Part shown: in pieces, positions 35,504-59,980 of the stretch | Layout of the letters: each line of letters begins with the position of its first letter | Numbering within the stretch: position 1 is the first letter of the stretch | Source: Bdellovibrionales bacterium | Lineage (GTDB): Bacteria > Bdellovibrionota > Bdellovibrionia > Bdellovibrionales > UBA1609 | Assembly: GCA_965242515.1 (NCBI GenBank) | Contig: OZ251448.1 | Coordinates: forward strand, 1,300,692-1,364,691 | Length of the DNA stretch: 64,000 bases | Reading direction: 5' to 3' | Translations under genes and position numbers: made by a program | The notes under the pieces: model-generated | Told to the model about the DNA's origin: nothing | The model's database searches: none | The model's input: only the letters and a program-made list of their open reading frames with translations

Positions 35504-35568
35504 GCCGAACAAACCAGCATATTAAGGGCTGGTAGTCTTTACCCCAAGACTTTAACCAGCTCTTTTTT
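35504..35568. repeat. 65-bp module shared by the 3' flanks of two genes
   Basis: gccgaacaaaccagcatattaagggctggtagtctttaccccaagactttaaccagctctttttt ends 5 nt from the stop of 35573-36169. A near-identical copy lies at 38458-38523. Confidence 0.8.
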
Positions 35569-35572
35569 ATTT

Positions 35573-36169
35573 TTAGTGGACACTGCCAGAGCCACCTTGC
35601 CGAACCCGTCTAGGAGTATTTTCAATATAATCAGGTGAGGATAAACTTCGCCCTATAGCTTGGCTAGTTAAGCGTGCTTCTGCTTTTTTTAACTGCTTAT
35701 TTATTTCTTTATCTTCAAAGACTTTTGTACTACTTGCTTGTTGTATCTTAGAAAAACCTAGCTGGTGAGCCTTATCTTTTATTTCTTGTAAGCTCATCTT
35801 CTCTATACCGTTCGCAAGGTTCATTATCTTTTTTCTTCTGATATTCAATCTATTTCTATTGTAACTATCTAAAGCGGATTTTTTTGATAGGTTGCTTGCC
35901 TCTATTAAAAAACCTACTGCTCTTTGTTTAGCATCCCTACTGTTTTCATTCATAAGCTCTGTATATCTTGTAGTCAAAGACAAAGACCTTTTAGAGCTTT
36001 TATTTGAACTTACCCACAATTTTTCAGATTCTCTTCCTAGTCTTGCTATTTCTACTTGCAAAATCTTATAAGCTTCTTTTTTATCTCTAGCTTTATCAAT
36101 AAAACTCCCTAGTGCAGGGTTTCCATACAAAACAGCAAAACAAGTTGCTAAATAAATAAGATTTTTCAT
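35573..36169 (-). CDS. hypothetical secreted helical protein
   Basis: Signal peptide MKNLIYLATCFAVLYGNPALG. Charged helical remainder. Confidence 0.5.
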   Translation of the reverse strand: MKNLIYLATCFAVLYGNPALGSFIDKARDKKEAYKILQVEIARLGRESEKLWVSSNKSSKRSLSLTTRYTELMNENSRDAKQRAVGFLIEASNLSKKSALDSYNRNRLNIRRKKIMNLANGIEKMSLQEIKDKAHQLGFSKIQQASSTKVFEDKEINKQLKKAEARLTSQAIGRSLSSPDYIENTPRRVRQGGSGSVH

Positions 36170-36333
36170 TTTAAACTCCTTTGTTAAGGGTTAATAAAAG
36201 GGGCAATATACAAAAGGTATCGGCAGACTCAAAAAAACCTTTAGCCTTTTTTTATTCTTTTTTTTTAAGTGTCTAAAAATCATACAGTTTAGTTTATTAG
36301 TGATGGTAAAGCCTCGCAAAACAAGGTTTAAAG

Positions 36334-36397
36334 GCAAAAAAAAGCCTTCTCGTGACGGGCTTTTAAGAAATATGAGGTAGTTTAAGAAAGCCCGAAT
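36334..36397. repeat. 64-bp block identical to 39114-39177
   Basis: ggcaaaaaaaagccttctcgtgacgggcttttaagaaatatgaggtagtttaagaaagcccgaa. It contains the small hairpin AGCC-N10-GGGCT, also seen at 35474-35494. Confidence 0.8.
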
Positions 36398-36623
36398 GTT
36401 TGAGGGGTTTTTACACCAACTCTTTTCAGGCTATTAAATAAAAAGATTGAAAGCCTGAATGTAGAGAAGATATAACTTTTTTACCCTTGGCTTGAAGATC
36501 TATACATATACTGCATATCAGCCTCTAGCTGGTTTAATTCTTTGTCACTAAGAATGTTTTTGGCATTAGTACTGTATTGTCAAAATAAAAGTATGAGCAG
36601 AAAAAGTACAAGGTTATGACAAC

Positions 36624-37007
36624 TTAAGCGGTTTTGTTTTGTAAAAGTAATAAAATAATACCAATCATTTTATCTTTATCTTTTGGGTTACTTTCTGCTA
36701 TCAAAAGTGTTAAACTTGTTAGAGCATTAGGTGTAAGGCTTGAGGGCAAACAGTTTGCTTTCTTTAAAAACCACACAAAAGCAAAGGCACCGCTTCGCTT
36801 ATTGCCATCTGTGAAGGGATGATTTTTAACCATAAAGTATAAAAGGTGAGCTACTTTATCTTCCAAAGATGGATACAGGTCTTGGTTATTAAAAGATTGA
36901 AAAATATTACTTGTAATAGCTACTACAGCATCTTTTGTTCTTTCTTGTCCGAATAAGTTGGTGGCTTGTTTTTTGGCTAAAAGATTTTGTTTTAATTTAA
37001 GGTTCAA
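36624..37007 (-). CDS. Fic/Doc-family protein fragment (Doc/RhuM-like C-terminal domain)
   Basis: Motif HPFTDGNKRSG (HxFxDGNKR, Doc-type). Only a TTG start, no partner ORF upstream, and probably 5'-truncated. Confidence 0.55.
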   Translation of the reverse strand: MNLKLKQNLLAKKQATNLFGQERTKDAVVAITSNIFQSFNNQDLYPSLEDKVAHLLYFMVKNHPFTDGNKRSGAFAFVWFLKKANCLPSSLTPNALTSLTLLIAESNPKDKDKMIGIILLLLQNKTA

Positions 37008-37053
37008 AATAACTTTAGTTGACTCTGGATGGATTTAACTTATTGTTATTATT

Positions 37054-37146
37054 ATGAAAAATAAGTATTTTGTTCGTTCCCATATTTCTGAGAAGAAATT
37101 TCGCCAAATTATTAAGTTTTTTTCAAGTTTTTGCTGGTTTTTGTAA
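37054..37146 (+). pseudogene. possible N-terminal remnant of an IS1595-like transposase
   Basis: The 30-aa ORF MKNKYFVRSHISEKKFRQIIKFF... resembles N-termini I recall for ISXO2/IS1595-type transposases. From memory only. Confidence 0.25.
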
Positions 37147-37175
37147 GAACATACCTTCTCGGGTCGGGCTGAAAC

Positions 37176-38180
37176 TTATAAGTGCTTTTTTTGTAGCTTT
37201 TTGATTTCTGCTTCTGAAAGCCCAGTCACCTCTGAAATAAGCGGAATATCTAGGTTTTTTTGAAACATGTTCGCAATCACCTGTCGTTCTCTTTCTTGCC
37301 TGCCTTTTAGCTCGCCCTCTTGCCTGCCTTCTTCTTTGCCTTTTTGCATGCCAGCAAGCATACCTTCTGCTTTTGCCTCATCTAATGAATATTGTAATAA
37401 AGGTGTCATAATTCTTTCCTCCTTATCTGTTATTGTTTTAGCCTCTATTTCTCGTGCTACATTAAAACTAAAATTCGGATCATATTTTCTCATATAATCC
37501 GCAGCTCGCCCTACTAACTCTCCCCTCTCCTCATAACTTAACTCCTGCCCTAATGTAAATAACTCCCGAACTTTAAGCTCATCTAACCTCCATATATGCT
37601 TTAATATATACAAAATAGGACGAGTTAGCAACCCTTTTGCCTCTTTTTCTATATCTAAAGCTTGTATGTTTAATAACCGTGGAGTGAAATTTAATACATT
37701 TTGCTTAAAATGCTTATTTAATACAGAAGTCCAGTGTAAAAACTTATGAAAGCTTAAAGGTCCTGTGTACTCCTTGTGCTTACCCTGGTACACTAATACT
37801 GGGATAATAGGACAGTTATTACTCTCATACATACTGGCTTGGTACATTAACATCTGTTGCATAACTTTAGGATCTTGCCAGCTTTTATGCTCTAACAAAA
37901 AAAGAAGCTTTATTTTTTCATCAGAGCCTTTAGTTTGTACTGAAAAGGTTAAGTCCATGCGGTTTTCTCTTCCTTGTTTGTTAAAAAAGGTAGTTTGTTC
38001 ACAAGTGAGGGTATCCCAGTTAAAAAGATTGTATTCTGATTTAGTTAAAATCAGACGGAATATGTCCAAAGCATACTTAGTGTGAGAATACACTTCTCTA
38101 AAGAACAGATCATGTATAAATTGCTTAATTTGCTTAAATTTAGTTTTCATAATGTTATCTCCATCATAGATATTACTCAT
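37176..38180 (-). CDS. Rpn-family (YhgA-like) PD-(D/E)XK recombination-promoting nuclease / putative transposase
   Basis: RMDLTFSV...KIKLLFLLEHKSWQD core. C-terminal EGRQEGELKGRQERE repeat and LSEAEIKKLQ helix. A paralogous copy lies at 58806-59802. Confidence 0.8.
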   Translation of the reverse strand: MSNIYDGDNIMKTKFKQIKQFIHDLFFREVYSHTKYALDIFRLILTKSEYNLFNWDTLTCEQTTFFNKQGRENRMDLTFSVQTKGSDEKIKLLFLLEHKSWQDPKVMQQMLMYQASMYESNNCPIIPVLVYQGKHKEYTGPLSFHKFLHWTSVLNKHFKQNVLNFTPRLLNIQALDIEKEAKGLLTRPILYILKHIWRLDELKVRELFTLGQELSYEERGELVGRAADYMRKYDPNFSFNVAREIEAKTITDKEERIMTPLLQYSLDEAKAEGMLAGMQKGKEEGRQEGELKGRQERERQVIANMFQKNLDIPLISEVTGLSEAEIKKLQKKHL

Positions 38181-38329
38181 TTTGTACCATTAAAAAATGG
38201 TATCTGCATAAGTTACATGCAAAATAGAGTCCACCCTAAAAGTAAGCTTTTGAGTTAGTGCTTGAGGCAAAAATAGCTATAAAAACAACCCTGATACTAA
38301 AAAAGCCCACTTTTGGACAAAAATGTGTA
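38181..38329 (-). repeat. conserved leader of Rpn gene copy A
   Basis: The reverse complement matches 58657-58805 almost base for base (acacatttttgtccaaaagtggg...ccattttttaatggtacaaaATG). Confidence 0.8.
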
Positions 38330-38457
38330 CATACCATGTACATTTTTTTGTACACTTTTTCATAAATGCACATTTTTGGCATAAAACATGAGATTGGTAT
38401 AAAGTAAAAAAAATCTTAAGCACAAGGCTTTTTAACTCAAAGTTTGTGTGGGAGTAC

Positions 38458-38523
38458 GCCGAACAAATCAGCATATTAAGGGCTGGTAGTCTTTACCCCG
38501 AGACTTTAACCAGCTCTTTTTTT
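38458..38523. repeat. second copy of the 65-bp 3'-flank module
   Basis: gccgaacaaatcagcatattaagggctggtagtctttaccccgagactttaaccagctcttttttt ends 2 nt from the stop of 38525-38893. Confidence 0.8.
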
Positions 38524-38524
38524 A

Positions 38525-38893
38525 TTATTCTTTTATGGCTTGATTGTTAGTATCATTATTTTTTTTAAATATTCTTCTACATAAACTAATCGGTTTTAAT
38601 GCATCTTTGACTGATATTCCTTTTTTCTTTGCAACATATTTAGCTAAAACTATACCTCCAACTACTGCCCCACCTACTGCCCCACCTATCCCTAACATTT
38701 TTAGGTCTCTTTCTATTTCTTTGTCTTCTTGATTTTGTGGTTTTCTGTTTTCTTCGTTTTCGTCACTTTCGTCGCTTTCCTCTATTATTACAGTGCGGGC
38801 AGTTAATCTTGCAAGTAGTGTCCAAAAAAGAGCATGTGCGTTTTTAGGAATATTTAAACTCACGATTAAAAATAAACTAAGTAAGTATTTCAT
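38525..38893 (-). CDS. small hypothetical membrane/secreted protein
   Basis: Signal-like MKYLLSLFLIVSLNIPKNAHA, an acidic stretch, and a Gly-rich TM GIGGAVGGAVVGGIVLAKYV. Confidence 0.5.
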   Translation of the reverse strand: MKYLLSLFLIVSLNIPKNAHALFWTLLARLTARTVIIEESDESDENEENRKPQNQEDKEIERDLKMLGIGGAVGGAVVGGIVLAKYVAKKKGISVKDALKPISLCRRIFKKNNDTNNQAIKE

Positions 38894-38987
38894 AATAACC
38901 TCCTCCTTTTTTTATTAATACCTTATTTTTCTATATCCTAGGGTTAAAAATGTAGCAAATTTATTTTCAATTTAAGCCTTTTGGTGG

Positions 38988-39002
38988 GTGTAAAATTTAC
39001 AC
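38988..39002. promoter_or_regulatory. palindromic motif GTGTAAA-A-TTTACAC, candidate operator
   Basis: Identical to 20878-20892. It lies 95 bp upstream of the minus-strand ATG at 38893. Confidence 0.3.
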
Positions 39003-39057
39003 TAAATTTTTAAATCCAGCTATTTTGCGTACATAGCCATTACCAGCGTACATAGTC

Positions 39058-39077
39058 ATTCCTGCGGAAGCAGGAAT
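39058..39077. repeat. ATTCC-N10-GGAAT palindrome (family P)
   Basis: attcctgcggaagcaggaat, preceded by gtc. Confidence 0.7.
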
Positions 39078-39113
39078 CCAGTAAAGCTAACATTTCTTTT
39101 GGGGAGGTTTAAT

Positions 39114-39177
39114 GGCAAAAAAAAGCCTTCTCGTGACGGGCTTTTAAGAAATATGAGGTAGTTTAAGAAAGCCCGAA
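39114..39177. repeat. 64-bp block identical to 36334-36397
   Basis: Same sequence as listed for 36334-36397. Confidence 0.8.
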
Positions 39178-39259
39178 CATTGAGAAGGTAGCCCTCTCGG
39201 GACAGGCTTGTTAGTTATTAGGACATTTAAAGAACCACAGCCCGAACATTGAGAAGGTA
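39170..39259. repeat. 21-bp direct repeat AGCCCGAACATTGAGAAGGTA x2
   Basis: Copies at 39170-39190 and 39239-39259. Confidence 0.8.
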
Positions 39260-39307
39260 AATAAAGAGCAAAACGAGGTTAGTTAAGATGTTTCGCCCCT
39301 TATAACT

Positions 39308-39814
39308 TTATTCCATAAACTTTTGCCCTCCTTTTAAATTGTTTTGTTTGTTACTAATATAAAGTGCGTATAGATATGCAATGTTACACATTCCAACACA
39401 ACACAGGAAAAATATTATAAAGTCTTTTAATCCCGATAATGTGCTTTGATAAAAAGACAAGCTATTAAACATGGTAGATGTGGGTAGGTTTATTATATAA
39501 ACCCCCGTAAAAATAATAAGAATCCATAGGAACATATTTATCATAAAACCTAATTTGTTAGGCTTTTCTTTTAAAAACCATTTTTCGTTTTTAGTTTTAA
39601 ACTTTCTATAAAGAATAATAAAAGTAAGTAATAGAAAGCACAACACAGCCCATATAAAACTAATTTTAACAAGGTAGCTAATTACCCGCATGCTGGTATC
39701 TATATCAACATAAGAAATACTATGTAAATAATTCAAGCCACTTACGCTTGCTATTGTAGTCAATAACAAAGCTCCTAAAAGCACTAAGTGCCAGTGTTTT
39801 AAATATCCTTTCAT
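39308..39814 (-). CDS. hypothetical 4-TM membrane protein (third gene of the fibre operon)
   Basis: Four hydrophobic segments (LVLLGALLLTTIASV, ISFIWAVLCFLLLTFIIL, MINMFLWILIIFTGVYII, FIIFFLCCVGMCNIAYLYALYI). 62-nt gap after the upstream gene. Confidence 0.55.
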   Translation of the reverse strand: MKGYLKHWHLVLLGALLLTTIASVSGLNYLHSISYVDIDTSMRVISYLVKISFIWAVLCFLLLTFIILYRKFKTKNEKWFLKEKPNKLGFMINMFLWILIIFTGVYIINLPTSTMFNSLSFYQSTLSGLKDFIIFFLCCVGMCNIAYLYALYISNKQNNLKGGQKFME

Positions 39815-39876
39815 TTTCTTACTCCTTTATTTAATAATTCCGTCAAACTCATATTTTTTATTTGTTACTTTTCCTG

Positions 39877-41373
39877 TTACCTTGTTATACCAACTTCAGA
39901 ACAGCTTTTTCCTTCAGTCCAATGGGTTAATCCTCCGGGACCGTTCCAACCATGGCTAGTACCACTACCAATAGGATCATCTAAATATGACCCATAACAT
40001 CTGTATCGGATTTTATAACAACACTTTCTTGTGTTTGTATGTTCCGAACAGTCATAGTACCAAGCTGTGGGGTGGATATATCCAACATTTGCATTAGGTA
40101 AGCGTATTGGTTCTGAATTCCATGCAATAACAAACTCATAAGAACCTCCTACACATTTTTTCCTAGTGTTAATTTTTGCCCATGTGCCATTTTGACATTT
40201 AAAGCGATTATAATCAGGAATAGGCTCATTTGTTATTCGTAAGTTAGTTTGTATATGCCCTTTTATACAGGTAACTGTATCGTTATTTCTAACAGTATCT
40301 GATTTTCCATAACCAGTCTTATACAACCACCTCCTATTATTAGATTTTTGTACTAGGTAGTTGCTGGATCCACTAGTATAGTCTTTGGCAAAGGACAAAG
40401 GACACTGTGAATTTGTTAAATCACTTACCATGCAAGCCCCTGTTTCTTTATTACATCCGGTGCGTCTTTCTAAATTTCCTCTGTTACAATAATAAGAACA
40501 TCTACGCCCAGAACGGTGCCAGCCATAATCACACTTACCTCTTCCTGTTCTTCCTCCTGTTGTGTAGTATGATAGTCTGCAACGGGATATTGTTTGAGCA
40601 GGGCAGTTTTTATGGTTACATTGGTCTGTAACTGTCATATCCCCATTCCTACAATTCTTATAGTTACAATAACCTTTATAACCTGTTTTGCATTGTCGCT
40701 GGCTATAATATGACCTACCATGTGGAACGCTGATAGCATTACATCGGGAATTTCCTTTATTACACCCTATCGGAGGACCGCAAGTGTTTCTTTCTTTTAC
40801 CCAATCCCCGTCATTACAATAATATCTGCATTCGCCGTTAGGGTACCCTGCCTTACAGCTACCAGACCAATTTGTGTTTGCATTATACCCTCCTACATCG
40901 TGGTTTCTGGCAGTGACCGCACAATTCCCCTCAATAGTGGCACTACTACAACTTGCATTACAATCATTTGTCTTTTTGTGCCATACCCCACCATAGCATT
41001 CATAATTACAAACGCCTGTGTAACCACTTGAGCATGTATTAGATGTTAAGTGTGTACCATGAGCGTATGTTCCTGCGGGTAAAACACAATTTTCTATAGT
41101 TTTTCCTGTGCAACTAATAGAAGTATCAGGTTGGCAAGTGTTTTTAGTACTTAAGCTTGAATGCTTATCTGTTACCCATGTACATTGTGAATTTGCATTA
41201 CAGCATGTTGCATTACCAACCCCTACCTGACTACAATCTAACAAAGTACTAGCACAACACCCTGGATCGCCTCTTTGTAAATCAGCATTAGTACAAACCT
41301 GCCCTCTTTTATTGTGAGTGTCTGCATGCCCTATTGAAATAAAAAATAAAATTATAAATAAAATTACTTTCAT
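39877..41373 (-). CDS. secreted Cys-rich modular protein
   Basis: Signal peptide MKVILFIILFFISIGHA. Four modules of about 55-60 aa with six Cys each, e.g. C..GY.G.C.Y.C..G.W......C. The start overlaps the stop of the fibre gene (ATGA). Confidence 0.6.
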   Translation of the reverse strand: MKVILFIILFFISIGHADTHNKRGQVCTNADLQRGDPGCCASTLLDCSQVGVGNATCCNANSQCTWVTDKHSSLSTKNTCQPDTSISCTGKTIENCVLPAGTYAHGTHLTSNTCSSGYTGVCNYECYGGVWHKKTNDCNASCSSATIEGNCAVTARNHDVGGYNANTNWSGSCKAGYPNGECRYYCNDGDWVKERNTCGPPIGCNKGNSRCNAISVPHGRSYYSQRQCKTGYKGYCNYKNCRNGDMTVTDQCNHKNCPAQTISRCRLSYYTTGGRTGRGKCDYGWHRSGRRCSYYCNRGNLERRTGCNKETGACMVSDLTNSQCPLSFAKDYTSGSSNYLVQKSNNRRWLYKTGYGKSDTVRNNDTVTCIKGHIQTNLRITNEPIPDYNRFKCQNGTWAKINTRKKCVGGSYEFVIAWNSEPIRLPNANVGYIHPTAWYYDCSEHTNTRKCCYKIRYRCYGSYLDDPIGSGTSHGWNGPGGLTHWTEGKSCSEVGITR

Positions 41374-43997
41374 TTTGACACCCCCGTTTTATTAAGTGAT
41401 TTTATTTGTTCTTTAAAAAAAATATTCTCTTTTTTTAATGCTTTATTTTCTTTTTCTAAAGCCTCAAGTCTTTTACCTATATCTAAAATAGTAATTTTTA
41501 GCTTATGTATTTTATCTAATACTTCTTTTTTAAAGTCCATAAACCTGTTATAAAGTGCTTTTATCCCAGCCCATAGTGTGCCGTATATTGAAACCCAATC
41601 GGGCTGTATAGGCTTACCATTATCTTGTATTTGCAAGTGTTTAGGTAAGTCTTCTGAAATAATACCCATTCGTTTATGCTTTGGGTGGTCTTTGTTGTAG
41701 TAATAAGTAAAAAGTGGGGTGTTATTTATTACACTTAATGCATATTGATAATTTTTAAATAAGGTAATGTTGTTTTTAAACACTCTACTTGATGCAGGGG
41801 CTACCGCTTGCTGACAAGTAGTTCCTGTATTTCCACAATTTAAATAAATCTTATTTTTTACATACAGGTTGCCGTTTATAGCAAAGTGTCCTTCTTCACT
41901 TGCTGTTAAGCTATCTGCTTTATAGTTTGTAGCAAAAAAATCAGCACCCGTTGGCGGAGTCCCAGTTGGTGTTGTACCAAAAAGTAAATTACCTATATTC
42001 ATCTGGTGACTTCCTGTTTCAGTTATTCCGCCCGCTGTGGTTTTTGAGGCTTCGTGACCGATAAATATATTATTATTTGCAGGTGTAGTTTTATCAGTAC
42101 CAGAGTTTAAAACATTCCCTGCTTCTTTACCTATTATTACATTATTACTCCCTCTGTTACTTTGACCTGCCAGAGGTCCTATTATTACATTAAACCCACT
42201 TGCAGTGTTATCACGCCCCGCCGTATCGCCAATAAAAATATTCCTATTACCTGAAGTGGTTTCTTTACCTGCACTTACCCCTATAAAAACATTTTTCGCA
42301 CCTGTGGTGTTTTTTTCACCTGCTACATTTCCAATAAAAATGTTTTGTATCCCTTGTTGCCCAGTCCCACCTTCTGTTTTGTTACCTGCTTTGTTACCGA
42401 TAAAAGTATTACCTCTACCATTTGTAAGGTTAACCCCCGCTTCATTTCCAATAGCTATATTGTTACGACCTGTTACTGGTTTTGATGTTGCGTCATTAGT
42501 CCACCTCCCTTTACCTGCCTGATAGCCGATAAATAAGTTTTTTGCACCTGTGGTGTTTCCGAATCCTGCTTCTCGCCCAATAAACACATTATCCCCAGCT
42601 GTGGTCTTATTTCCCGCATTGTGTCCTACAAAAGTATTATTTGACGCTGATACATTATCCGCTCCAGCTCCAGCACCAATAAATACATGATTCCCACCTG
42701 TGTTTTTATTTCCTGCATAAGCTCCTATAAAAGTATTCCCATTTGTGGTTGTGTTTGCCATTCCTGTTTGTACTCCAATAAAGGTGTTTTCAGACCCACT
42801 ATTAGCACGACCTGCACTTGGTCCTACAAAGGTGTTGCTTTGCCCTCCTTCGCTATTTTGTCCTGCTAGTTCGCCAATAAATACATGATTCCTTCCTGAA
42901 GTATTGTTTTCCCCAGCATAAGCCCCTATGAAAGTATTTCTAGAGGCTTCTATTTCGTGAGTTCTTGTGGTTGCAGTGTCATCTTTTAAGTTTTCTTTTC
43001 CAGCTTGATAACCGATAAAAACATTCTCGAACCCTGTAGTGGTTTTCCTGCCTGCATTGTTGCCGACAAAAGTATTGCGAATGCTTGTGGTGTCCCTGCC
43101 TGCATTGCGACCGATAAAAGTATTTTTTCCTCCAGCCCCAGAATTACCTGCATTTAATCCGTAAGCAGTAGTAGAAACATCTGTGTTACCTTTTGTAGTA
43201 CCACAGCCGACATAAATAGCCTTGTCTGGACCTGACTGATATTCTGTGTAACAATCAACACTGCCCCCCGTACCGCCAGAGGCTTGTATAATACCCCCAC
43301 AAGTGGGACTTTCGCATGTTTCAACTGCTGTACCCCCAGCATTTAACTTATATTTAAAATCGCAATACTCATAATAGCAGTTATTTATATTCGCACTTGT
43401 GGCATCACAATCTTTACCAGCTATACCTTTACCTAAACCCTCTTTTTTGTAATAAACCACAAAGCGTCTGGTAACAGGGTCACTAATGGGGCTTGTAGTG
43501 CTAACAGTAGGGCTTGCCGTACTACTATCACCTGGTACTTTTTTTAATTCCATTTTTACAATGTGTAAAGAGCTTTTAAATACCTCCCCAGATTCTAAAA
43601 CCTTATAATTTTCTGTGTATGGTTGGGTAGTCCCTGTATAAGTACTAAGTTTTTTAACTTCGCCTGTGTACTTATTTGCACTATTTGCTCCCTCTAACCG
43701 ACCTATTAAAGGTTTAAAACTACCTTTACAATGTTGTTCGGTTCTTAAAATATCTAATATAGAGGCATGTAAGTCTTGTATTCCAATCCCCGCCATAGCT
43801 TTGCTTGTAATTCTACTGCTTAAGTCGTTCAGCTGTAATAGCCCCAAAAGTACGAATGGTAACGCCCCCATAGTCGCAATTAAACCTATTAGCGACACAC
43901 CTCGGGCATTGCGAAAATAATAAAAAATGGATTTTTCTCGTTTTTCCATGCCCTTACTTGAGGCTGTGCTGAAAAAGTGTTTTTTTAATCTAAGCAT
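41370..43997 (-). CDS. tail-fibre-like surface protein: pilin-like N-terminus, NxFIGxxAG repeat shaft, C-terminal peptidase-S74-type intramolecular chaperone domain
   Basis: ARG|VSLIGLIATMGALPFVLL. About 20 units of N[TVI]F[IV]GxxAGxxNTxG. C-terminal SSRVFKNNITLF...RMGIISEDLPKHL...DWVSIYGTLWAGIKAL followed by a coiled coil. An alternative start M17 lies at 43949. Confidence 0.7.
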   Translation of the reverse strand: MLRLKKHFFSTASSKGMEKREKSIFYYFRNARGVSLIGLIATMGALPFVLLGLLQLNDLSSRITSKAMAGIGIQDLHASILDILRTEQHCKGSFKPLIGRLEGANSANKYTGEVKKLSTYTGTTQPYTENYKVLESGEVFKSSLHIVKMELKKVPGDSSTASPTVSTTSPISDPVTRRFVVYYKKEGLGKGIAGKDCDATSANINNCYYEYCDFKYKLNAGGTAVETCESPTCGGIIQASGGTGGSVDCYTEYQSGPDKAIYVGCGTTKGNTDVSTTAYGLNAGNSGAGGKNTFIGRNAGRDTTSIRNTFVGNNAGRKTTTGFENVFIGYQAGKENLKDDTATTRTHEIEASRNTFIGAYAGENNTSGRNHVFIGELAGQNSEGGQSNTFVGPSAGRANSGSENTFIGVQTGMANTTTNGNTFIGAYAGNKNTGGNHVFIGAGAGADNVSASNNTFVGHNAGNKTTAGDNVFIGREAGFGNTTGAKNLFIGYQAGKGRWTNDATSKPVTGRNNIAIGNEAGVNLTNGRGNTFIGNKAGNKTEGGTGQQGIQNIFIGNVAGEKNTTGAKNVFIGVSAGKETTSGNRNIFIGDTAGRDNTASGFNVIIGPLAGQSNRGSNNVIIGKEAGNVLNSGTDKTTPANNNIFIGHEASKTTAGGITETGSHQMNIGNLLFGTTPTGTPPTGADFFATNYKADSLTASEEGHFAINGNLYVKNKIYLNCGNTGTTCQQAVAPASSRVFKNNITLFKNYQYALSVINNTPLFTYYYNKDHPKHKRMGIISEDLPKHLQIQDNGKPIQPDWVSIYGTLWAGIKALYNRFMDFKKEVLDKIHKLKITILDIGKRLEALEKENKALKKENIFFKEQIKSLNKTGVSK

Positions 43998-44091
43998 AAA
44001 GTAGCCTCACTTTTATGTTAAGAGTTAAAAGAAGATATTTTAAAGGAGGCAAGGGTGATTTTTTAATCAATGCTTTATTATTCAGGCAGGT

Positions 44092-44196
44092 GAAAAAACC
44101 ATGCTCAAAACGAGTTCGGATTTGACACAAAGTGGTAAGCTGACAGCTTACGCTTTGTGGCAAAACGCAGTCCAAAGCTTTTGAGCTCGGTTTTCC
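44092..44196. repeat. hairpin element family H
   Basis: GAAAAAACCATGCTCAAAACGAGTTCGGATTTGA...GCTTTTGAGCTCGGTTTTCC. Together with its 3' flank it is duplicated at 45753-45916. Confidence 0.8.
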
Positions 44197-44237
44197 TCTC
44201 TGCAAAAAAAGACTTTTTAAACAGTAAGCATGCGTGG

Positions 44238-44257
44238 ATTCCCGCCTTCGTGGGAAT
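44238..44257. repeat. ATTCC-N10-GGAAT palindrome (family P)
   Basis: attcccgccttcgtgggaat followed by gacaactgacg. Confidence 0.75.
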
Positions 44258-44385
44258 GACAACTGACGAAGAAATAACGAGCGATGAAATAAATAAAAAA
44301 GATAACTAATGTAATTCTTTAGTGCTACTCTGGAATAGTAAAATACTGTTCTGGAATAGTGAGAAAACCAATTCAAAACGAGTTC

Positions 44386-44407
44386 GCACCCAAAGGGTGC
44401 TTTTTTT
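44386..44407 (+). terminator. intrinsic-terminator-like hairpin inside repeat family T
   Basis: GCACCC-AAA-GGGTGC followed by TTTTTTT. There is no ORF upstream. Duplicated at 45557-45578. Confidence 0.45.
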
Positions 44408-44475
44408 GATACACTCCTTGCACACTCAATATTATTCCCGTCAATACCACTTAATAAACTATTGCTTTGGTATAA

Positions 44476-44582
44476 GGGGAAAAACCAAGTCAAAACGAGT
44501 TCGGATTTAACGCAAAGTAGTAGCCTTTGGCTAACACTTTGCGGTAAACCGCATGTTTGAGCTTTTGACTTGGTTTTTCCCC
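44476..44582. repeat. hairpin element family H (diverged copy with near-perfect termini)
   Basis: GGGGAAAAACCAAGTCAAAA...TTTTGACTTGGTTTTTCCCC. Confidence 0.8.
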
Positions 44583-44625
44583 TATACGCACAAAGTAGTA
44601 ACAGGCTAATAATCCTCTCTGCGAA

Positions 44626-44693
44626 AGAATGTCTGAAACAATAAAGAGCGTTAGCTCTTTTACTCCCCCCGTGCAAACGGGGGGCTGGGGGGG
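44626..44693. repeat. structured module family G (two hairpins, one with GCAA loop)
   Basis: agaatgtctgaaacaat-AAAGAGC-gtta-GCTCTTT-tact-CCCCCCGT-gcaa-ACGGGGGG-ctggggggg. The second copy at 47142-47208 sits right after a gene stop. Confidence 0.8.
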
Positions 44694-44711
44694 TGATTAA
44701 ATTAATTAATA

Positions 44712-44952
44712 GATGGTAACGATGTAACGATGTAACGATGTAACGATGTAACGATGTAACGATGTAACGATGTAACGATGTAACGATGTAACGATGTAAC
44801 GATGTAACGATGTAACGATGTAACGATGTAACGATGTAACGATGTAACGATGTAACGATGTAACGATGTAACGATGTAACGATGTAACGATGTAACGATG
44901 TAACGATGTAACGATGTAACGATGTAACGATGTAACGATGTAACGATGTAAC
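44712..44952. repeat. 8-bp microsatellite (GATGTAAC)29, perfect, plus one imperfect leading unit
   Basis: Counted directly: 44721-44952 is 232 bp, which is 29 uninterrupted copies. It is preceded by gatggtaac. Confidence 0.95.
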
Positions 44953-45348
44953 CAGTATAGCACATTAGCTTCATACTGTCAAGCCCTTGTGGTAAAAATA
45001 ATCTGTTTAAAAGTAAGTTTAAAATCCTCATATTTGCCGTATCGGCTGATTGGAAAAATACTTTAGCTTTTTTTTATTTTTTTTAAATTTTTGCTATTTT
45101 TTCTAAAAAATCACCATTAGTGTCTCATTTTGAGACACTTTGGCGGACTCTAGCCTGCTATATAAGTCTGGTAAACCATTCAAAAGTTTGGTTTTGTGAT
45201 GTTTTATTTACAGTTTAGCCAACCATTTACTAGAAGGAAGGATTGTGTGTCGGTGCAGGCAAGGGCCCCACGGACGGCTGTCCTGCACAAGACATACAAT
45301 CCTTCCTTAAATTTTGCTTGTCATTTTTTGTCAAAAGGGGCTTTCTGG

Positions 45349-45368
45349 ATTCCCGCCTCCGCGGGAAT
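45349..45368. repeat. ATTCC-N10-GGAAT palindrome (family P)
   Basis: attcccgcctccgcgggaat followed by reiterated ggaatgacNN..gacg sub-repeats up to about 45440. Confidence 0.75.
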
Positions 45369-45556
45369 GACGGCTGACGATGGAATGACAATAGAGACAG
45401 GAATGACGACAGTTGACGCAGGAATGATGGTTGAGGAAGAAATGATGAGCGATGGAAAAAATAAAACAGATAACTACTAATGTAATTCTTTAGTGCTACT
45501 CTGGAATAGTGAAATACTGTTCTTGAATAGTGAGAAAACCAATTCAAAACGAGTTC

Positions 45557-45578
45557 GCACCCAAAGGGTGCTTTTTTT
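45557..45578 (+). terminator. intrinsic-terminator-like hairpin inside repeat family T (second copy)
   Basis: GCACCC-AAA-GGGTGC followed by TTTTTTT. Confidence 0.45.
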
Positions 45579-45635
45579 GACACACTCCTTGCACCCACAA
45601 CTTAATAGCTGTCAATGACACAAAGTACATGCTGG

Positions 45636-45655
45636 ATTCCTGTTTCCGCAGGAAT
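45636..45655. repeat. ATTCC-N10-GGAAT palindrome (family P)
   Basis: attcctgtttccgcaggaat followed by gatggttgacg. Confidence 0.7.
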
Positions 45656-45752
45656 GATGGTTGACGAAGGAGTGACGATTGACGAAGGAATAATTTTTGA
45701 TAGAAAAATAAAAATGAACACATATAATGATATATATGCTTCATTGCAGAGA

Positions 45753-45855
45753 GGGAAACCATGCTCAAAACGAGTTCGGATTTGATACAATGCGGAAGTC
45801 GAAGACTTACGCTTTGTGGCAAAACGCAGTCCAAAGCTTTTGAGCTCGGTTTTCC
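45753..45855. repeat. hairpin element family H
   Basis: GGGAAACCATGCTCAAAACGAGTTCGGATTTGATACAA...GCTTTTGAGCTCGGTTTTCC. Confidence 0.8.
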
Positions 45856-45896
45856 TCTCTGCGAAAACAGACTTTTTAAACAGTAAGCATGCGTGG

Positions 45897-45916
45897 ATTC
45901 CCGCCTTCGCGGGAAT
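45897..45916. repeat. ATTCC-N10-GGAAT palindrome (family P) used as the IS insertion site
   Basis: attcccgccttcgcgggaat. The IS left end starts at the next base. Confidence 0.8.
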
Positions 45917-47098
45917 TGTATGTGTTCACTAATTTGGTGACAGAATCAAGTTTTATTATCTTTCATTTTTTTTGTTTTTACATCTTGTGCTTTTATACAC
46001 ATTTTGTTCACCTCCAACGGCACTTTGTTACCTAAACCCTGGTGTGGTCTTAACTCATTATAATATATCAAATACTCCTCCAACTCAGACTTAAACTTCT
46101 CTATTGTATCAAAAGTCGTACCATCTATTAAATCCTCATTCATTGTCCTCCAAAACCTCTCAATCTTACCATTTGTCTGTGGCCTGTAAGGTCTCGTATA
46201 TCTATGCCTTACCCCTAACTCCAATAACATCCTCTCAAAAGGATGCTCCAACTTATTGTTACGAGAACTAAACTCCGAACCATTATCACTCATCACCTCC
46301 TCAAACTGTATCTCATACCTTCTCTTTAATACATTAAATAACCTTAAGGTAGAAAACATCACTGTTAAACTCCTAATATCCTCTACCACCTCAGCCCAGG
46401 CTATACGCGTACAATCATCTATCACACACACTAAATAATACCTCTTGCTTTTTTTCTTACTACTACCTCTTTCAGAAGAAGAAGATACAACTATATCCCT
46501 GCCCAAATGATGGCAATCTATATGAGCTAACTCCCCAGCCCTTTGTTTTATGATCTTTTGCTTGTTTTCCTTCATCTTTGGCTTTAACCTATTAACCCCA
46601 TTCTTCTTAAAAATACGATACACCTTACTTGCTGATAATGGCTTATAACCTCTTTTTTTTAAAAGAGGGTTAAGTATATAACACATCTCATACCTATTCA
46701 CACCATATCTGCGATGCTTTAACACCTCTTGCTCTATATAAACACTCTCATCACTCCTCCTATGCTTCCACTTAGGACCTCTCCTTTGTGGCACTAAACT
46801 ACTAATATCTTTATTACTACTCAAATAACGATGATAATACTTAAAAAAAGTCTGACGATTAGTATTATGATACTTATAAAAATCACTCGCAAACCTAAAC
46901 TTAGGATGCTTCTTGCTCTTTACTAACTCATAATCCTTCATCAAATACCTCCACTTACTAATGTAACTCCTATAAATCGTCTTGTCTTGTGTATTATTTC
47001 TCATAACTTATCCCTCCCTTTTTATTTGTTTATGTTTTATACATATTGTTATGCTTAAACTAACATAAATTCTGTCACCAAATTAGTGAACATTTACA
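45917..47098 (-). mobile_element. intact IS481-like insertion sequence (1182 bp)
   Basis: 30-bp terminal inverted repeats TGTATGTGTTCACTAATTTGGTGACAGAAT and TGTAAATGTTCACTAATTTGGTGACAGAAT (28/30). 5-bp direct duplication GGAAT at 45912-45916 and 47099-47103. A single transposase ORF fills the element. Confidence 0.85.
45946..47004 (-). CDS. DDE transposase (HTH + rve integrase core; IS481-family-like)
   Basis: AHIDCHHLG (D), VMSDNGSEF (D) and YRPQTNGKIERFWRT (E). A 352-aa single ORF. Confidence 0.85.
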   Translation of the reverse strand: MRNNTQDKTIYRSYISKWRYLMKDYELVKSKKHPKFRFASDFYKYHNTNRQTFFKYYHRYLSSNKDISSLVPQRRGPKWKHRRSDESVYIEQEVLKHRRYGVNRYEMCYILNPLLKKRGYKPLSASKVYRIFKKNGVNRLKPKMKENKQKIIKQRAGELAHIDCHHLGRDIVVSSSSERGSSKKKSKRYYLVCVIDDCTRIAWAEVVEDIRSLTVMFSTLRLFNVLKRRYEIQFEEVMSDNGSEFSSRNNKLEHPFERMLLELGVRHRYTRPYRPQTNGKIERFWRTMNEDLIDGTTFDTIEKFKSELEEYLIYYNELRPHQGLGNKVPLEVNKMCIKAQDVKTKKMKDNKT

Positions 47099-47141
47099 GG
47101 AATGACAGTGGTAGACGCGGGAATAACAGCTGACGCAGAAA

Positions 47142-47208
47142 AGAATGTCTTAAACAATAAAGAGCTTTAGCTCTTTTGCTCCCCCCGTGCAAACGGGGGG
47201 CTGGGGGG
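47142..47208 (-). terminator. family G double hairpin acting as a probable terminator of 47221-49044
   Basis: It begins 12 nt after the stop codon. The minus strand reads CCCCCCGT-TTGC-ACGGGGGG, then AAAGAGC-loop-GCTCTTT, then ATTGTTT. Confidence 0.45.
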
Positions 47209-47220
47209 TATATTAACAGA

Positions 47221-49044
47221 TTAACAACTGCCACTTAAAAAACATTGTGCTAATTGTTGAATATTCTGATTTCTATGAATGTTTAACCTCCGTCTCACAA
47301 TTGCTTGCCTTAAGACACGAAGTGGAGGATTTCTTATCTGATATAAAGCTTGCAAAGCTGATAATAAAATTTCTGCATCGGTGCTGGTTTGCACCACCCG
47401 CACTAATTGCTGACCCACCTCTGGCTCTTGTGCTTGTAAAAAATGTAAAGTTTTAATAGCTTGTAATTGCACCCACTGACCATTATCAGTATGACTTTGA
47501 CTATTATAAACATAATGAGCAATTAAACGATTAATGGAAGAATCTTTTACTCGCGAATACGCTAACCCATATAAAGCGTACCACACCAGCCCGTAATGCT
47601 CTGGTGTATTCTTTAAAAAATAAACCATTCTATTAATAATAGCAGAATCGCTAACATTGAGATGCCCAAGGCTTTTCATTACCTGATAACACACTACAGG
47701 GTCTTGAGACACTTTAGATATACAAATGTTCATAAGCCTACGATGAGCACGATAATCTGTTATATTAAATATCTCTAAAATGAGAGCACTCCATATATTT
47801 TGATAAAACCGAGTTTGAAAATCATCTGAAGTTAAACCCAAACCCGGAAGTGGCACATGCTCATTATACATTAAAGCACTTAAAAAGTCATACGACTCAG
47901 AAGTAGACTGCATGACTGTATGTAGCGTGTGCTTGCGTAATTCAGACCAGTAAAAATTGTTCGTTACCCAATCAAAAGAATGTAAAAAATTTAAAAACTG
48001 AATTTTTATATAAGGTAAAAAAGGGCTAATCCTATTATACAACCCAGTGAACTCTGACTTAAATGTGTTATTATTTTTAATATCGTTAAAAATACCAAGG
48101 GCTGTACCTTTAAAAGGGCGATGCTCTAATACAAAACTTTTAATAGCTGTATAGGCTTTTGCACCATCACCTGCATGTAATAAACTCTCTATAGTACGCA
48201 AACCATCCGTATCAGATAAAGAAGATACATAAAGCGGACATATTTTTTGAAATTTTTTAAAATTAGGATGACTAGAAGATAAACTTTTTATCTCTTTAGC
48301 AGAACCACCTAAAGCATAACGATAAAATGGATTAAATGCATTGGGATCTCTTTGATCTAAATAATTTTTGTAACTTCCATATTGCTGGTTGATAGATTGA
48401 AAGTAACTATGTAACAAAGAGTGTATATTCTCACCTAAGGGGCTTAAAGAGTTAAAACCATAAATAGTGGTTTGCGGACCAGAAAACACCATCTGCATTT
48501 GCTCTTCAAAAGATAAACCAAAAGGTAAGTATTTAGCAGCTGATACCATTTGTGCCATGTCGGTAATCATGTGATATTCGTTTATTAAAATGCTGGCATA
48601 CTGTTCTGGAGTACGAGTGCCTGGACTTTTATCAGCTAAAGTATTGCAACCAAATAAAAATACTTCTTTTACCCGCGATAAAATCCCTTGGCAAGATCGA
48701 GTGCAAGATTGCCGTTGCATCATACTCACCGGTAAAATGTAATTATGTTTTTTGCCAAAAAACAACCCTCCAAAATGCCCTGAAATGACTAACACATCAC
48801 ACTGATACTGCCTCTGACAAGCTGACATAAACCAATGCGTGTTGTTAGGAAGACTTTTTACAGATAAAGGCACTAATTCTATAAAATCAAAATCTTGTGG
48901 ACTTAAGTACTGTTTAAAAATATCAATCTCGTCTGAAGAATTAATGGTGACAGCACATAATTTATACTTAGCCATAACCATACATGGCCAATACATCAGC
49001 AATAAAAAACATACCCATAACTTGATACGAACTAAACTAAACAT
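47221..49044 (-). CDS. hypothetical secreted protein with caspase-like His/Cys dyad pattern in the N-terminal domain
   Basis: Signal-like N-terminus. Strand-plus-residue patterns CDVLVISGH(90)FGG and EVFLFGC(133)NTLA lie 43 aa apart. The C-terminal about 350 aa are helical-repeat-like. Confidence 0.5.
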   Translation of the reverse strand: MFSLVRIKLWVCFLLLMYWPCMVMAKYKLCAVTINSSDEIDIFKQYLSPQDFDFIELVPLSVKSLPNNTHWFMSACQRQYQCDVLVISGHFGGLFFGKKHNYILPVSMMQRQSCTRSCQGILSRVKEVFLFGCNTLADKSPGTRTPEQYASILINEYHMITDMAQMVSAAKYLPFGLSFEEQMQMVFSGPQTTIYGFNSLSPLGENIHSLLHSYFQSINQQYGSYKNYLDQRDPNAFNPFYRYALGGSAKEIKSLSSSHPNFKKFQKICPLYVSSLSDTDGLRTIESLLHAGDGAKAYTAIKSFVLEHRPFKGTALGIFNDIKNNNTFKSEFTGLYNRISPFLPYIKIQFLNFLHSFDWVTNNFYWSELRKHTLHTVMQSTSESYDFLSALMYNEHVPLPGLGLTSDDFQTRFYQNIWSALILEIFNITDYRAHRRLMNICISKVSQDPVVCYQVMKSLGHLNVSDSAIINRMVYFLKNTPEHYGLVWYALYGLAYSRVKDSSINRLIAHYVYNSQSHTDNGQWVQLQAIKTLHFLQAQEPEVGQQLVRVVQTSTDAEILLSALQALYQIRNPPLRVLRQAIVRRRLNIHRNQNIQQLAQCFLSGSC

Positions 49045-58337: not shown

Positions 58338-58512
58338 TTTAATTTTTAAACAGCTTGTTACAAGCTTACTTTAGCTAAACTAAAATCTTAAGAAATATCT
58401 ATAAGACTTTTATCATATTTTAATAACAAGTATTAGCTTAAGTTGTCTCATCAAAACCCAAAAGCAATAGTATCTTGTATTTTTTGTCTTTAAAAGAGTA
58501 AGCTTTTTCTGG
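58338..58512. repeat. about 172-bp direct repeat, left copy (brackets the Rpn pseudogene cassette)
   Basis: atttttaaacagcttgttacaagcttactttagctaaact...ttttttgtctttaaaag...ctgg matches 59809-59980 with a few substitutions. Confidence 0.8.
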
Positions 58513-59808: not shown

Positions 59809-59980
59809 TTGTTATTTTTAAACAGCTTGTTACAAGCTTACTTTAGCTAAACTCAAATCTTAAGAAATATCTACAAGACTTTTATTATATTGTTAATAAC
59901 AAGTATTAGCTTAAGTTGTCTTGTCATGACCCAAAAACAATAGTATTTTATATTTTTTGTCTTTAAAAGGGGCTTTCTGG
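59809..59980. repeat. about 172-bp direct repeat, right copy
   Basis: See 58338-58512. It starts 7 nt after the Rpn pseudogene stop. Confidence 0.8.

Follow-up and report, generated by a model that had tools for sequence, protein, structure and literature searches.

Among described systems, the closest to the locus reported here are the mosaic adhesive trimer (MAT) fibres of Bdellovibrio bacteriovorus, including their S74 subgroup (Caulton et al. 2024, PMC10769870; reviewed in PMC12428579). These fibres are chimeric and surface exposed, 13 of the 21 end in an S74 domain with the motif SDxxxK, and their anchor is unidentified (PMC10769870). Their conserved N-terminal domain is beta-rich, comprises ~130 aa after the signal sequence and is without homologues in the PDB (PMC10769870). 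The authors of that study remark that type IV pili might be involved in fixing the fibres (PMC10769870), and the type IV pili of Bdellovibrio have been reported as impossible to inactivate (PMC12428579). The present analysis concerns a three-gene operon of a Bdellovibrionales bacterium, which lies on the minus strand of a 64-kb stretch of DNA (contig OZ251448.1, positions 1,300,692 to 1,364,691; the whole stretch is called the window below). The operon encodes, in this order, a fibre protein of 875 aa, a secreted Cys-rich protein termed the partner, and a small protein with four transmembrane (TM) segments. The fibre is best read as a member of a trimeric adhesin subfamily that is known so far from Bdellovibrionales alone and resembles the MAT fibres.

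The resemblance can be stated in three points. Both are large, cell-encoded fibres made of phage-like beta-helical parts with a C-terminal self-cleaving S74 chaperone (predicted in the present case); both have a beta-rich N-terminal domain without a PDB homologue (here aa ~110-235, the two domains being compared by description); and both form multi-paralogue families in Bdellovibrionota. The two differ at the N terminus, where the present fibre has a prepilin-type signal followed by an alpha-1 helix and the MAT paper describes only a 'signal peptide', and at the S74 motif, which reads SSxxxK here and SDxxxK there. The present locus also differs in having a coupled Cys-rich partner, a small membrane protein, repeat switches and a mobile context, and the organisms of the family are small-genome metagenome-assembled genomes (MAGs) of 1.2-2.2 Mb with ankyrin and leucine-rich repeat (LRR) proteins. 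Neither the family profile nor the C-terminus profile gave a sequence match to the solved MAT fragments. An initial annotation of this DNA had described the operon as 'not a textbook system'. That description stands for the pilin fusion, but the fibre as such falls within the published MAT concept (PMC10769870). In the literature searched, no prepilin or type IV pilin fused to an S74 intramolecular chaperone was described.

Other systems share part of the layout. CofB of enterotoxigenic Escherichia coli (ETEC) and TcpB of Vibrio cholerae are large pilin-like homotrimers with a long leader, are located at the pilus tip, and have a Sec-exported partner encoded alongside (CofJ and TcpF, respectively). 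The likeness to the present locus lies in the 33-aa leader, the residue other than Phe at +1, the secreted product of the next gene and the conserved N-terminal head of the partner. The present fibre differs in that it showed no sequence or fold match to CofB or TcpB, in that it is not encoded in a pilus biogenesis operon, and in that its trimerisation would use a phage-type shaft with an S74 domain, not a lectin or beta-repeat domain. In the S16/T2-type gp37/gp38 pair (PDB 6f45), the cut site is S-D-R-R-I-K, to which S-S-R-V-F-K is the equivalent here. Note, however, that the partner is a Cys-rich protein with a signal peptide and is not similar to gp38, and that the fibre is cell-borne, with a pilin N terminus and no phage around it. 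Modular type IV pilins such as Streptococcus sanguinis PilB consist of a pilin module fused to a functional adhesive module, as in the present fibre (PMC8179133). They are monomeric and carry a grafted globular domain, unlike the trimeric phage-fibre module with a self-removing chaperone that is proposed here.

Architecture of the fibre protein

At the level of the family, the combination of a prepilin N terminus, a phage-type shaft and an S74 domain is near certain. In the window, the fibre gene occupies 41370-43997 (minus strand) as an 875-aa open reading frame (ORF). Residues 1-33 (43899-43997, minus strand) form a basic leader of prepilin type that ends in Gly33, with a predicted cut at G33/V34 (slashes within sequences mark cuts), and residues 34-85 (43743-43898, minus strand) form the hydrophobic alpha-1N and long alpha-1 helix of a V+1/G+5 variant. 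The features of a class III signal are present, namely Gly at -1 after a basic leader and then ~20 hydrophobic residues (...FRNARG/VSLIGLIATMGALPFVLLGLL), and the N-terminal sequence ...NARG/VSLIGLIATMGALPFVLL has Gly at +5. When aligned with relatives, G33 coincided with the near-invariant family Gly of the G/FSLxE motif. A pilin-like leader without Glu at +5 had already been recognised in the initial annotation, and the family data agree with it: Pfam N_methyl was matched by 13 of 19 close homologues, the canonical prepilin motif K-G-F-[ST]-L-[VIL]-E is present in the three paralogues of the same genome and in most relatives, and, in the stretch of leader and alpha-1, the family profile matched type IV pilins of solved structure (7tgg at E 1e-4, 9egp, 8tob, 8pfb and 3sok).

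Among the top 120 homologues, 51 carry the prepilin motif G/[FLV][ST]xx[EGSA], with a median leader of 27 aa, and 49 of these also have SSxxxK. The +5 residue in the 51 is E in 33, G in 12, S in 4 and A in 2, while the +1 residue is F in 38, L in 7, V in 5 and I in 1. Since Gly, Ser or Ala at +5 is also found across the motif-bearing homologues, the window fibre is a member of a recurring non-Glu5 subtype and not a one-off oddity, and its N terminus reads as a degenerate type IV prepilin signal.

An AlphaFold2 (AF2) model of aa 1-285, computed from 30 sequences, gave a mean predicted local distance difference test (pLDDT) value of 77.7 and contained a continuous helix at 36-85 (mature residues 3-52), over which the 10-residue block means of pLDDT were ~71-94. 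A helix of this extent has roughly the usual length of a pilin alpha-1. The model also contained seven strands, between aa 112 and 235, which fall in the beta-rich, Cys-stabilised domain of aa 86-275 (43173-43742, minus strand) with its invariant C90, C228 and C249. A homologue search with a profile of the N-terminal domain returned 2 proteins, its candidate list having probably been swamped.

The shaft follows at aa 276-660 (42018-43172, minus strand) and is made of 20 tandem repeats of N-x-F-I-G-x-x-A-G-x-x-N-T-x-G. The count was made with our own loosened pattern, N-x-F-I-G-x-x-A-G, which is found 20 times at aa 292-651 with a spacing of mostly 16-17 aa, against a mean of 0.05 in shuffled sequences. 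The ~20 units first proposed are therefore present with this pattern, but the stricter N-[TVI]-F-[IV]-G-x-x-A-G fits only 12 of the 20. The proposed phage-fibre character of the shaft was supported by matches of the repeats to PHROG 4636 'tail spike protein' (E 1e-30) and PHROG 6002 (2e-24), as well as by tblastn, in which genes for tail fibres, from marine and other phages, were matched at 31-38% identity over ~45% of the protein, with no tblastn match reaching the N- or C-terminal parts of the fibre. Beyond the shaft lies a tip region, aa 661-735 (41793-42017, minus strand), with the elements Q-x-N-I-G-N-L-x-F-G and I-N-G-x-L-Y-V and a Cys pair. The columns from Q665 to P677, together with C721, are nearly invariant in the family alignment, and this region would form the distal end of the fibre after cleavage.

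C-terminal to the 20-repeat shaft and the tip region is a divergent S74 intramolecular chaperone/protease domain with the motif SSRVFK (aa 736-830; 41508-41792, minus strand), and then a C-terminal coiled coil (aa 831-875; 41370-41507, minus strand), the last ~45 residues having matched coiled-coil proteins only. On its own, the window fibre matched Pfam Peptidase_S74 (PF13884) over aa 736-786 at 19.2 bits (E 0.0015). This is below the 22-bit cut-off of the family, and the assignment therefore needs profile evidence. The same Pfam family was matched at E<0.01 by 15 of the 19 close relatives (best 3.5e-6), S736, S737 and K741 are invariant in 19/19 close homologues, and SS[RKQE]xxK is present in 56 of the 57 homologues that share this C terminus. 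In a profile-profile comparison with hhalign, the clade C terminus aligned with canonical SDxRxK S74 domains over 95 columns with a probability of 97.3% (E 1.8e-11); S736 was paired with the catalytic Ser and K741 with the Lys, and S737 stood at the Asp of SDxxxK. Searched against the PDB, the C-terminus profile matched the T5 pb1 chaperone 8hqz (E 4e-4) and, more weakly, the tail fibre 8jov and S16 gp37 6f45 (E 0.66). The S74 call of the initial annotation thus has profile-profile support, although the Pfam match of the protein alone is sub-threshold, and on these comparisons the assignment is sound.

The Ser-Lys dyad has the spacing of S-D-x-x-x-K with Asp exchanged for Ser, and SSxxxK represents a distinct S74 subtype. 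A cut at SS/RVFK, as originally suggested, was not borne out, the aligned catalytic Ser being S736. In phage S16 gp37, the cut falls before the Ser of SDRRIK (PMC7917993). By analogy with S16, and because S736 aligns with the catalytic Ser, the predicted cut in the window fibre is A735/S736 (APA/SSRVFK).

The cassette, its relatives and its upstream region

Each of the three ORFs, encoded on the minus strand, is present as initially annotated, and so are the ATGA overlap and the 62-nt gap. A 4-nt overlap joins the fibre stop to the partner start (...GTG TCA AAA TGA and ATG AAA GTA, sharing ATGA), and the gene for the 4-TM protein, 62 nt past the partner stop, has an AAGGAG ribosome-binding site 8 nt 5' of its ATG. 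The partner (39877-41373, minus strand) is a protein of 498 aa with 42 Cys and a hydrophobic N-terminal signal sequence. Its conserved parts are the signal peptide and an N-terminal head, G-Q-x-C-T-x-x-D-L...D-P-G-C-C...C-C-N-A-N-x-Q-C-T-W-V-T. It also carries repeated C-x2-G-Y-x-G-x-C-x-Y-x-C-x2-G-x-W modules, and its variable parts are the number of these modules and the C terminus. The partner matched no family in Pfam, NCBIfam or PHROGs; its relatives numbered 4 among 5.8 billion proteins, and the alignment was too variable for search patterns to be derived from it. The Cys modules resemble Sushi/CCP domains in motif only, and such an identity is not claimed.

A partner homologue was found directly 3' of a fibre gene at eight places, always with the 4-nt overlap, or at nine if the duplicated L027 copy is counted (L numbers denote related loci): the window, L001, L003, L005, L010, L026/L027, L028 and L029. 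These places are in the genome of the window itself, in another MAG (OZ241911.1) and on four contigs that come from two metagenome samples. The Cys-rich partner of the initial annotation is thereby supported. Co-conservation held for the fibre-partner pair, but the 4-TM protein is kept at only one other element (L026/L027). This protein (39308-39814, minus strand; 168 aa) has four hydrophobic segments of 19 aa and is lineage-restricted, with 2 relatives among 1.84 billion representatives. BLAST of the first loci had made it look like an unconserved orphan, a view that was dropped given that a gene at the matching position in L026/L027 is 63% identical. In L005, L010, L028 and L029, the same place is taken by an unrelated protein of 86-106 aa that starts with MDLRxK and has two hydrophobic segments in three of the four cases. 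A small membrane protein therefore follows the partner at 6 of the 8 places and comes from two unrelated families; neither of them is present in L001 or L003.

At three loci the partner ends in a Hint domain (C-F-x-x-D-T...Y-Y-A-D-G-Y-L-V-H-N), namely L003 (10568-12130), L005 (10511-12133) and L028 (12403-13677). For L003 and L005 this is based on Pfam matches to PT-HINT (1.6e-8 and 7.8e-5) and Vint, while the domain of L028 was read from its sequence. The window partner is without a Hint domain and, where the domain is present, nothing comes after it. A Hint domain in this terminal position suggests self-cleavage or Hedgehog-like C-terminal processing of the partner. In a separate contig, L002 (ERZ26050464 contig_2), the partner was 100% identical over 381 aa and the fibre gene was split into many short ORFs; this contig looks like a noisy assembly from the same organism or from one almost identical to it.

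With the fibre as query, 2255 homologous proteins were found; three of them are paralogues encoded in the window's 1.76-Mb genome, which thus has four copies in total. Some members carry automatic database names, such as 'prepilin-type N-terminal cleavage/methylation domain-containing protein'. A genome scan yielded 23 related loci, all titled 'MAG: Bdellovibrionales bacterium' and from assemblies of ~1.2-2.2 Mb, and the likeness to fibres of predatory Bdellovibrio that had been noted at first is in keeping with this distribution. Genomes carry several copies each, up to 10 or more in one MAG, and on one contig five loci, each with several tandem fibre genes, lie within 75 kb. The ankyrin and LRR proteins encoded near the loci suggest an association with a eukaryote. 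No relatives of the fibre clade were found in 2.9 million viral contigs (IMG/VR), and scans of metagenome contigs, with the partner alone and then with the fibre profile, found no relatives.

The initial annotation had called the operon 'stand-alone', which is correct within the window; the cassettes of relatives, however, lie on mobile-looking contigs with resolvase, VapE-like primase/helicase and methylases. Two of the loci, L026 and L027, are on a single 46.4-kb contig (ERZ26050812 ctg26003_4x_c, the '_c' being taken to mean circular) that carries the cassette twice, and L028 (59.6 kb) and L029 (18.4 kb) are similar contigs. They have many small same-strand ORFs and encode resolvases, HNH endonucleases, SocA, restriction-modification systems, N6/N4 methylases, a VapE-like primase/helicase (PHROG DNA helicase, 9e-56) and an ordinary pilin of 223-227 aa. 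The larger unknown proteins tested from L026, L028 and L029 matched no phage structural family. The cassette thus travels on mobile DNA and, because there was no phage structural match and the clade is absent from IMG/VR, nothing marks that DNA as a tailed phage.

Other clades of the fibre family have other companions. On OZ241877.1, a gene for a protein of 175-213 aa with a lipoprotein-like signal peptide lies 2-28 nt past each fibre gene (L014 9902-10456, L017 9898-10452, L022 10087-10728, L023 and L024). The products in L014 and L022 are pentapeptide-repeat proteins (Pfam E 2e-30 and 2e-48), and those in L017, L023 and L024 are similar by position. These genes give this other fibre clade a dedicated partner of its own. 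Two loci, L012 (2413-9809) and L016 (4816-11824), have triplets of fibre genes that overlap and are translationally coupled; their prepilin-like N termini are without Glu5 (GFTLIS, GISLIS/GVTLIS and GFAMVS/GFAMLS), and the triplets are candidates for a heterotrimeric fibre. Contig CBDBBW010000007.1 (L006-L009 and L020) has arrays of five or more fibre genes, with imperfect 54-, 108- and 162-nt tandem repeats 90-250 nt before each prepilin motif and 21-nt repeats ~1 kb upstream.

Upstream of the operon, a gene-free mosaic containing a microsatellite had been noted, and the region was found as described, with a perfect array at 44716-44952. A near-consensus sigma-70 promoter (44954-44982, minus strand) points toward the fibre gene; it consists of TTGACA, 17 nt, TATACT and a TG extension, has 11 of 12 matches, and is the best in the scanned region. 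The octanucleotide microsatellite (44716-44952, minus strand) begins ~2 nt past the -10 box and is scored by Tandem Repeats Finder (TRF) as (GTAACGAT)x29.6 with 100% matches, or (GTTACATC)x29.6 on the gene strand. Directly past the microsatellite is a 77-nt hairpin and terminator-like element (44624-44700, minus strand), with its terminator-like site at 44660-44643. The element recurs with 92% identity at 47140-47216, immediately beyond the stop of a 607-aa gene that ends at 47221. The gene-free repeat mosaic occupies the remaining 43998-44623 (minus strand), with the repeat families D5, D6 and D10 and an ATTCCC-N8-GGGAAT hairpin at 44238-44257.

An upstream region of ~210 nt is common to the window (44643-45170, minus strand), L001 (4850-5830) and L026 (9620-9870), and is composed of an inverted repeat GTGTCTCA-N-TGAGACA, an A-tract, the promoter and the octanucleotide array. 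The array has 29.6 units in the window and ~90 of the same unit at the orthologous place in L001, and reads (TTACAGCG)x8, a one-base variant, in L026. In L026, which is without the mosaic, the distance from the array to the ATG is ~130 nt, and in the window the promoter and microsatellite are ~720 nt from the ATG. In both the window and L001, the array and the gene are separated by the 77-nt element and then by 0.6-1 kb of dispersed-repeat mosaic with ATTCCC-N8-GGGAAT hairpins. Because the inserted terminator-like element and mosaic separate the promoter from the gene, the window copy of the fibre may be weakly expressed or silent. It could also be that the promoter, array and terminator form a unit with a self-contained transcript, made almost entirely of GUUACAUC repeats, because the array meets the hairpin and terminator-like element at once in the window and in L001.

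A further type of repeat was found within fibre genes of OZ241911.1. The paralogues L003 (7874-8010) and L010 (7830-8010) share the 5' end ATG-AAA-CAT-TCT-(CAAC)n, in the leader-coding region. L010 has n=34 and is in frame, with an 870-aa ORF; L003 has n=26, so that the frame is shifted and a stop follows after 43 codons. Two fibre genes of another genome have (TTCA)23 and (TCAT)10 arrays ~240 nt upstream. The L003/L010 pair is textbook tetranucleotide phase variation, with L010 ON and L003 OFF, and expression of the fibre family is switched by simple-sequence repeats.

The mosaic extends beyond the region next to the operon. At 43998-45945 and 47083-47216 it contains 146-, 111- and 40-nt repeat families and three ATTCCC-N8-GGGAAT hairpins, and it surrounds an insertion sequence (IS) of the rve family (45946-47004). 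In form, the hairpin appears to resemble the Neisseria dRS3 consensus. The 607-aa gene was ruled out as a counterpart of the ORF that precedes the fibre gene in L001, the L001 'ORF' being repeat mosaic read through.

Proposed mechanism and rival explanations

Our overall model is of a trimeric, pilin-anchored fibre with a self-removing chaperone and a tip-docked secreted partner, and we give it a probability of roughly 0.55. It starts from the observed domain architecture and its conservation, the cellular and mobile, non-phage context, the coupled partner and the repeat switches. For the export route and the role of the partner in particular, the odds are about even. In the model, alpha-1N would insert the fibre into the inner membrane with the remainder in the periplasm, and prepilin peptidase would cut at G33/V34. 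Three S74 domains and the coiled coil would associate, bringing about trimerisation and templating the folding of the shaft, and S736 with K741 would then self-cut at A735/S736 and release the chaperone, as motif and homology predict. The freed tip, aa 661-735, would be a docking site for the Sec-exported Cys-rich protein from the translationally coupled gene; its conserved N-terminal head would dock, while its variable modules and C terminus would bind a ligand. This docking step is modelled on S16 gp37, a chaperone-bearing fibre, and gp38, its tip adhesin; S74 cleavage in phage S16 uncovers the gp38 docking site (PMC7917993). Through the three pilin-like helices, a type IV pilus or a machine like the type II secretion system (T2SS) would lift the loaded trimer through the outer membrane as a tip 'minor pilin'. 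The model here is that of the trimeric tip pilins CofB and TcpB with secreted CofJ and TcpF; these homotrimeric tip minor pilins carry the operon-encoded secreted proteins, bound by their N termini (PMC6048534, PMC9565799). The small membrane protein would be an accessory.

Several results count against this model. The window fibre has Val at +1 and Gly at +5, and so is without both Phe+1 and Glu+5, and by itself it did not score against Pfam N_methyl (PF07963). With the N-terminal model as query, Foldseek found no pilin and nothing significant (best E 0.4 in the PDB and 0.08 in BFVD), and the fold of a pilin head is therefore not confirmed. No similarity to gp38, CofJ or TcpF could be detected in the partner, and its AF2 model, from 4 sequences, reached a pLDDT of 44, which is unusable, and was not used for a fold search. 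No gene for a prepilin peptidase, pilus ATPase or secretin adjoins the operon, and no pilus assembly genes lie beside the cassette at any locus examined. More distant fibre genes have other downstream neighbours, such as pentapeptide-repeat lipoproteins and further fibre genes, so that the partner belongs to a single clade and is no inherent part of the fibre. Finally, a terminator-like element lies between the conserved promoter and the window fibre gene.

The rival explanations differ in what they make of the cassette and its surroundings. One is that the cassette serves a mobile element, be it a defective phage, a phage-plasmid or an unrecognised virus-like particle, as its receptor-binding module, that the fibre would sit on a particle and not on the cell, and that the window holds a decayed integrated copy. 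Close relatives of the whole cassette are indeed found on mobile-looking contigs, including the 46-kb contig with two copies, and the cassette on these contigs comprises fibre, partner and small membrane protein, to which L026 adds the next secreted protein; an IS, an Rpn transposase, Fic, a methylase and an ImmA/IrrE-HTH (helix-turn-helix) pair lie near the window operon, and small proteins with 2-4 TM segments past a tail-fibre gene recall holins. However, a search of the window and of the larger element proteins gave no capsid, portal, terminase, tail or baseplate family, the fibre begins with a prepilin signal where a phage attachment domain would be expected, the clade lacks a viral-contig relative in the IMG/VR search, chromosomes hold several copies (the window's genome has four and one MAG at least ten), and the mobile-looking contigs themselves encode the ordinary pilin. 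We consider this explanation improbable. The strict 4-nt overlap at 8/8 places argues for a stoichiometric partnership, and it tells against the proposal that the pilin-like segment is a signal-anchor only and that the downstream pair is an independent secreted effector or toxin with its small membrane immunity protein, in the manner of polymorphic toxins, linked to the fibre by co-expression only. Such a pair would fit the conserved N terminus and variable C terminus of the partner, with its Hint domain in L003, L005 and L028, the two unrelated small membrane families that follow, as swappable immunity genes would, and the missing Glu+5 of the window fibre. Yet the Hint domain is at the very C terminus with no toxin domain after it, no toxin family was detected, and the class of membrane protein is independent of the partner C terminus, as L005 and L028 (Hint) and L010 and L029 (none) all have the 2-TM type. 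A plain anchor, moreover, would not need the prepilin motif that is present in 51/120 homologues, 33 of them with Glu+5, and this proposal too seems unlikely.

It is likewise doubtful that the window copy is just a silent or decaying paralogue, with V+1/G+5 as signs of degeneration and its promoter cut off by inserted repeats. The terminator-like element and repeats resembling miniature inverted-repeat transposable elements (MITEs) that lie in the ~720 nt between promoter or array and ATG, as compared with ~130 nt in L026, would be accounted for in this way, as would the disruption of the downstream cassette by an Rpn/Fic insertion and duplication and the retention of GF[ST]L[VI]E in the three same-genome paralogues. 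Against this, the three ORFs are intact and have good ribosome-binding sites, the invariant residues of the family, including S736 and K741, are kept, Gly+5 in twelve other homologues and Val+1 in five indicate a recurring subtype, and L001 combines the same inserted mosaic with an intact cassette.

The trimeric, pilin-anchored fibre with its tip-docked partner is accordingly the explanation that we prefer. A bolder version, which we offer tentatively and hold to be somewhat less probable than its negation, is that the family forms an undescribed homotrimeric 'tip pilin' class, built from phage parts and plugged into a type IV pilus (T4P) or T2SS, which exports a Cys-rich adhesin, and that it is also a phase-variable adhesin repertoire, borne on mobile elements, of host-associated Bdellovibrionales. 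If the proposal is true and the MAT fibres share this N terminus, their surface anchor would be identified and a link to type IV pili made; the family gives a concrete, testable answer, in relatives, to the question of MAT anchoring, in that the fibre itself begins like a pilin. Three principles would then meet in one protein, namely a self-removing chaperone, a partner-carrying trimeric tip pilin and repeat-driven phase variation. Of the surface-protein families seen in these small-genome Bdellovibrionales MAGs, the fibre family is the most expanded. Given this expansion and the hints of a eukaryotic host (ankyrin, LRR), the tip, the partner and the on/off switches are the obvious places to start in learning to what these bacteria attach.

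Neighbouring genes in the window

The window, with a G+C content of ~35%, is otherwise chromosomal in content. It encodes TonB, an ABC permease pair, Lon, ClpX, ClpP, leucyl aminopeptidase, GshA, LysRS, DeoC, NifU and SecDF, as well as three shikimate-pathway (aro) genes, gamma-glutamyltranspeptidase (ggt) and methionine aminopeptidase (map). An ankyrin-repeat protein, an AAA_14/DUF4143 ATPase, Fic, an Rpn/YhgA-type transposase, the rve-family IS, an N6/N4 methylase and an ImmA/IrrE-HTH protein are encoded there too. That phage structural genes are absent nearby, as first stated, was borne out across the 64 kb: searches with Pfam and PHROGs, the Pfam-negative proteins included, found no capsid, portal, terminase, tail or baseplate proteins. 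The window holds no tRNA that would mark an integration site, and an Rfam scan of 38000-47500 gave no match.

Downstream of the operon, a gene for a secreted protein of 198 aa (35573-36169, minus strand) is a candidate for a displaced fourth gene of the cassette. Its product is 36% identical overall, and 71% at the C terminus, to a 227-aa secreted protein of L026 (15153-15836), whose gene is the next one of at least 100 aa past the L026 4-TM gene. The flanks of an Rpn/Fic insertion are duplicated, 35504-35568 recurring at 38458-38522 (65 nt) and 36324-36396 at 39105-39177 (73 nt), and the 198-aa gene was probably moved by that insertion. Across 35504-39177, these 65- and 73-nt direct repeats (97-99% identical) bracket two different genes for small secreted proteins (35573-36169 and 38525-38893), between which lie the Rpn/YhgA transposase and a truncated-looking Fic gene. 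The arrangement looks like a duplication of the cassette around an insertion.

Elsewhere in the window, a 672-aa protein (5592-7610) has a TadE/TadG-like N terminus (Pfam Tad, E 2e-5) and is a second large pilin-like protein. Direct repeats of ~155 nt, 91-96% identical, lie at 58342-58496 and 59814-59969 around a 199-aa transposase-like gene (PHROG transposase, 8e-16). After that gene, at 60190-63461, the N6/N4 DNA methylase is fused to, or overlaps, the ImmA/IrrE-HTH gene.

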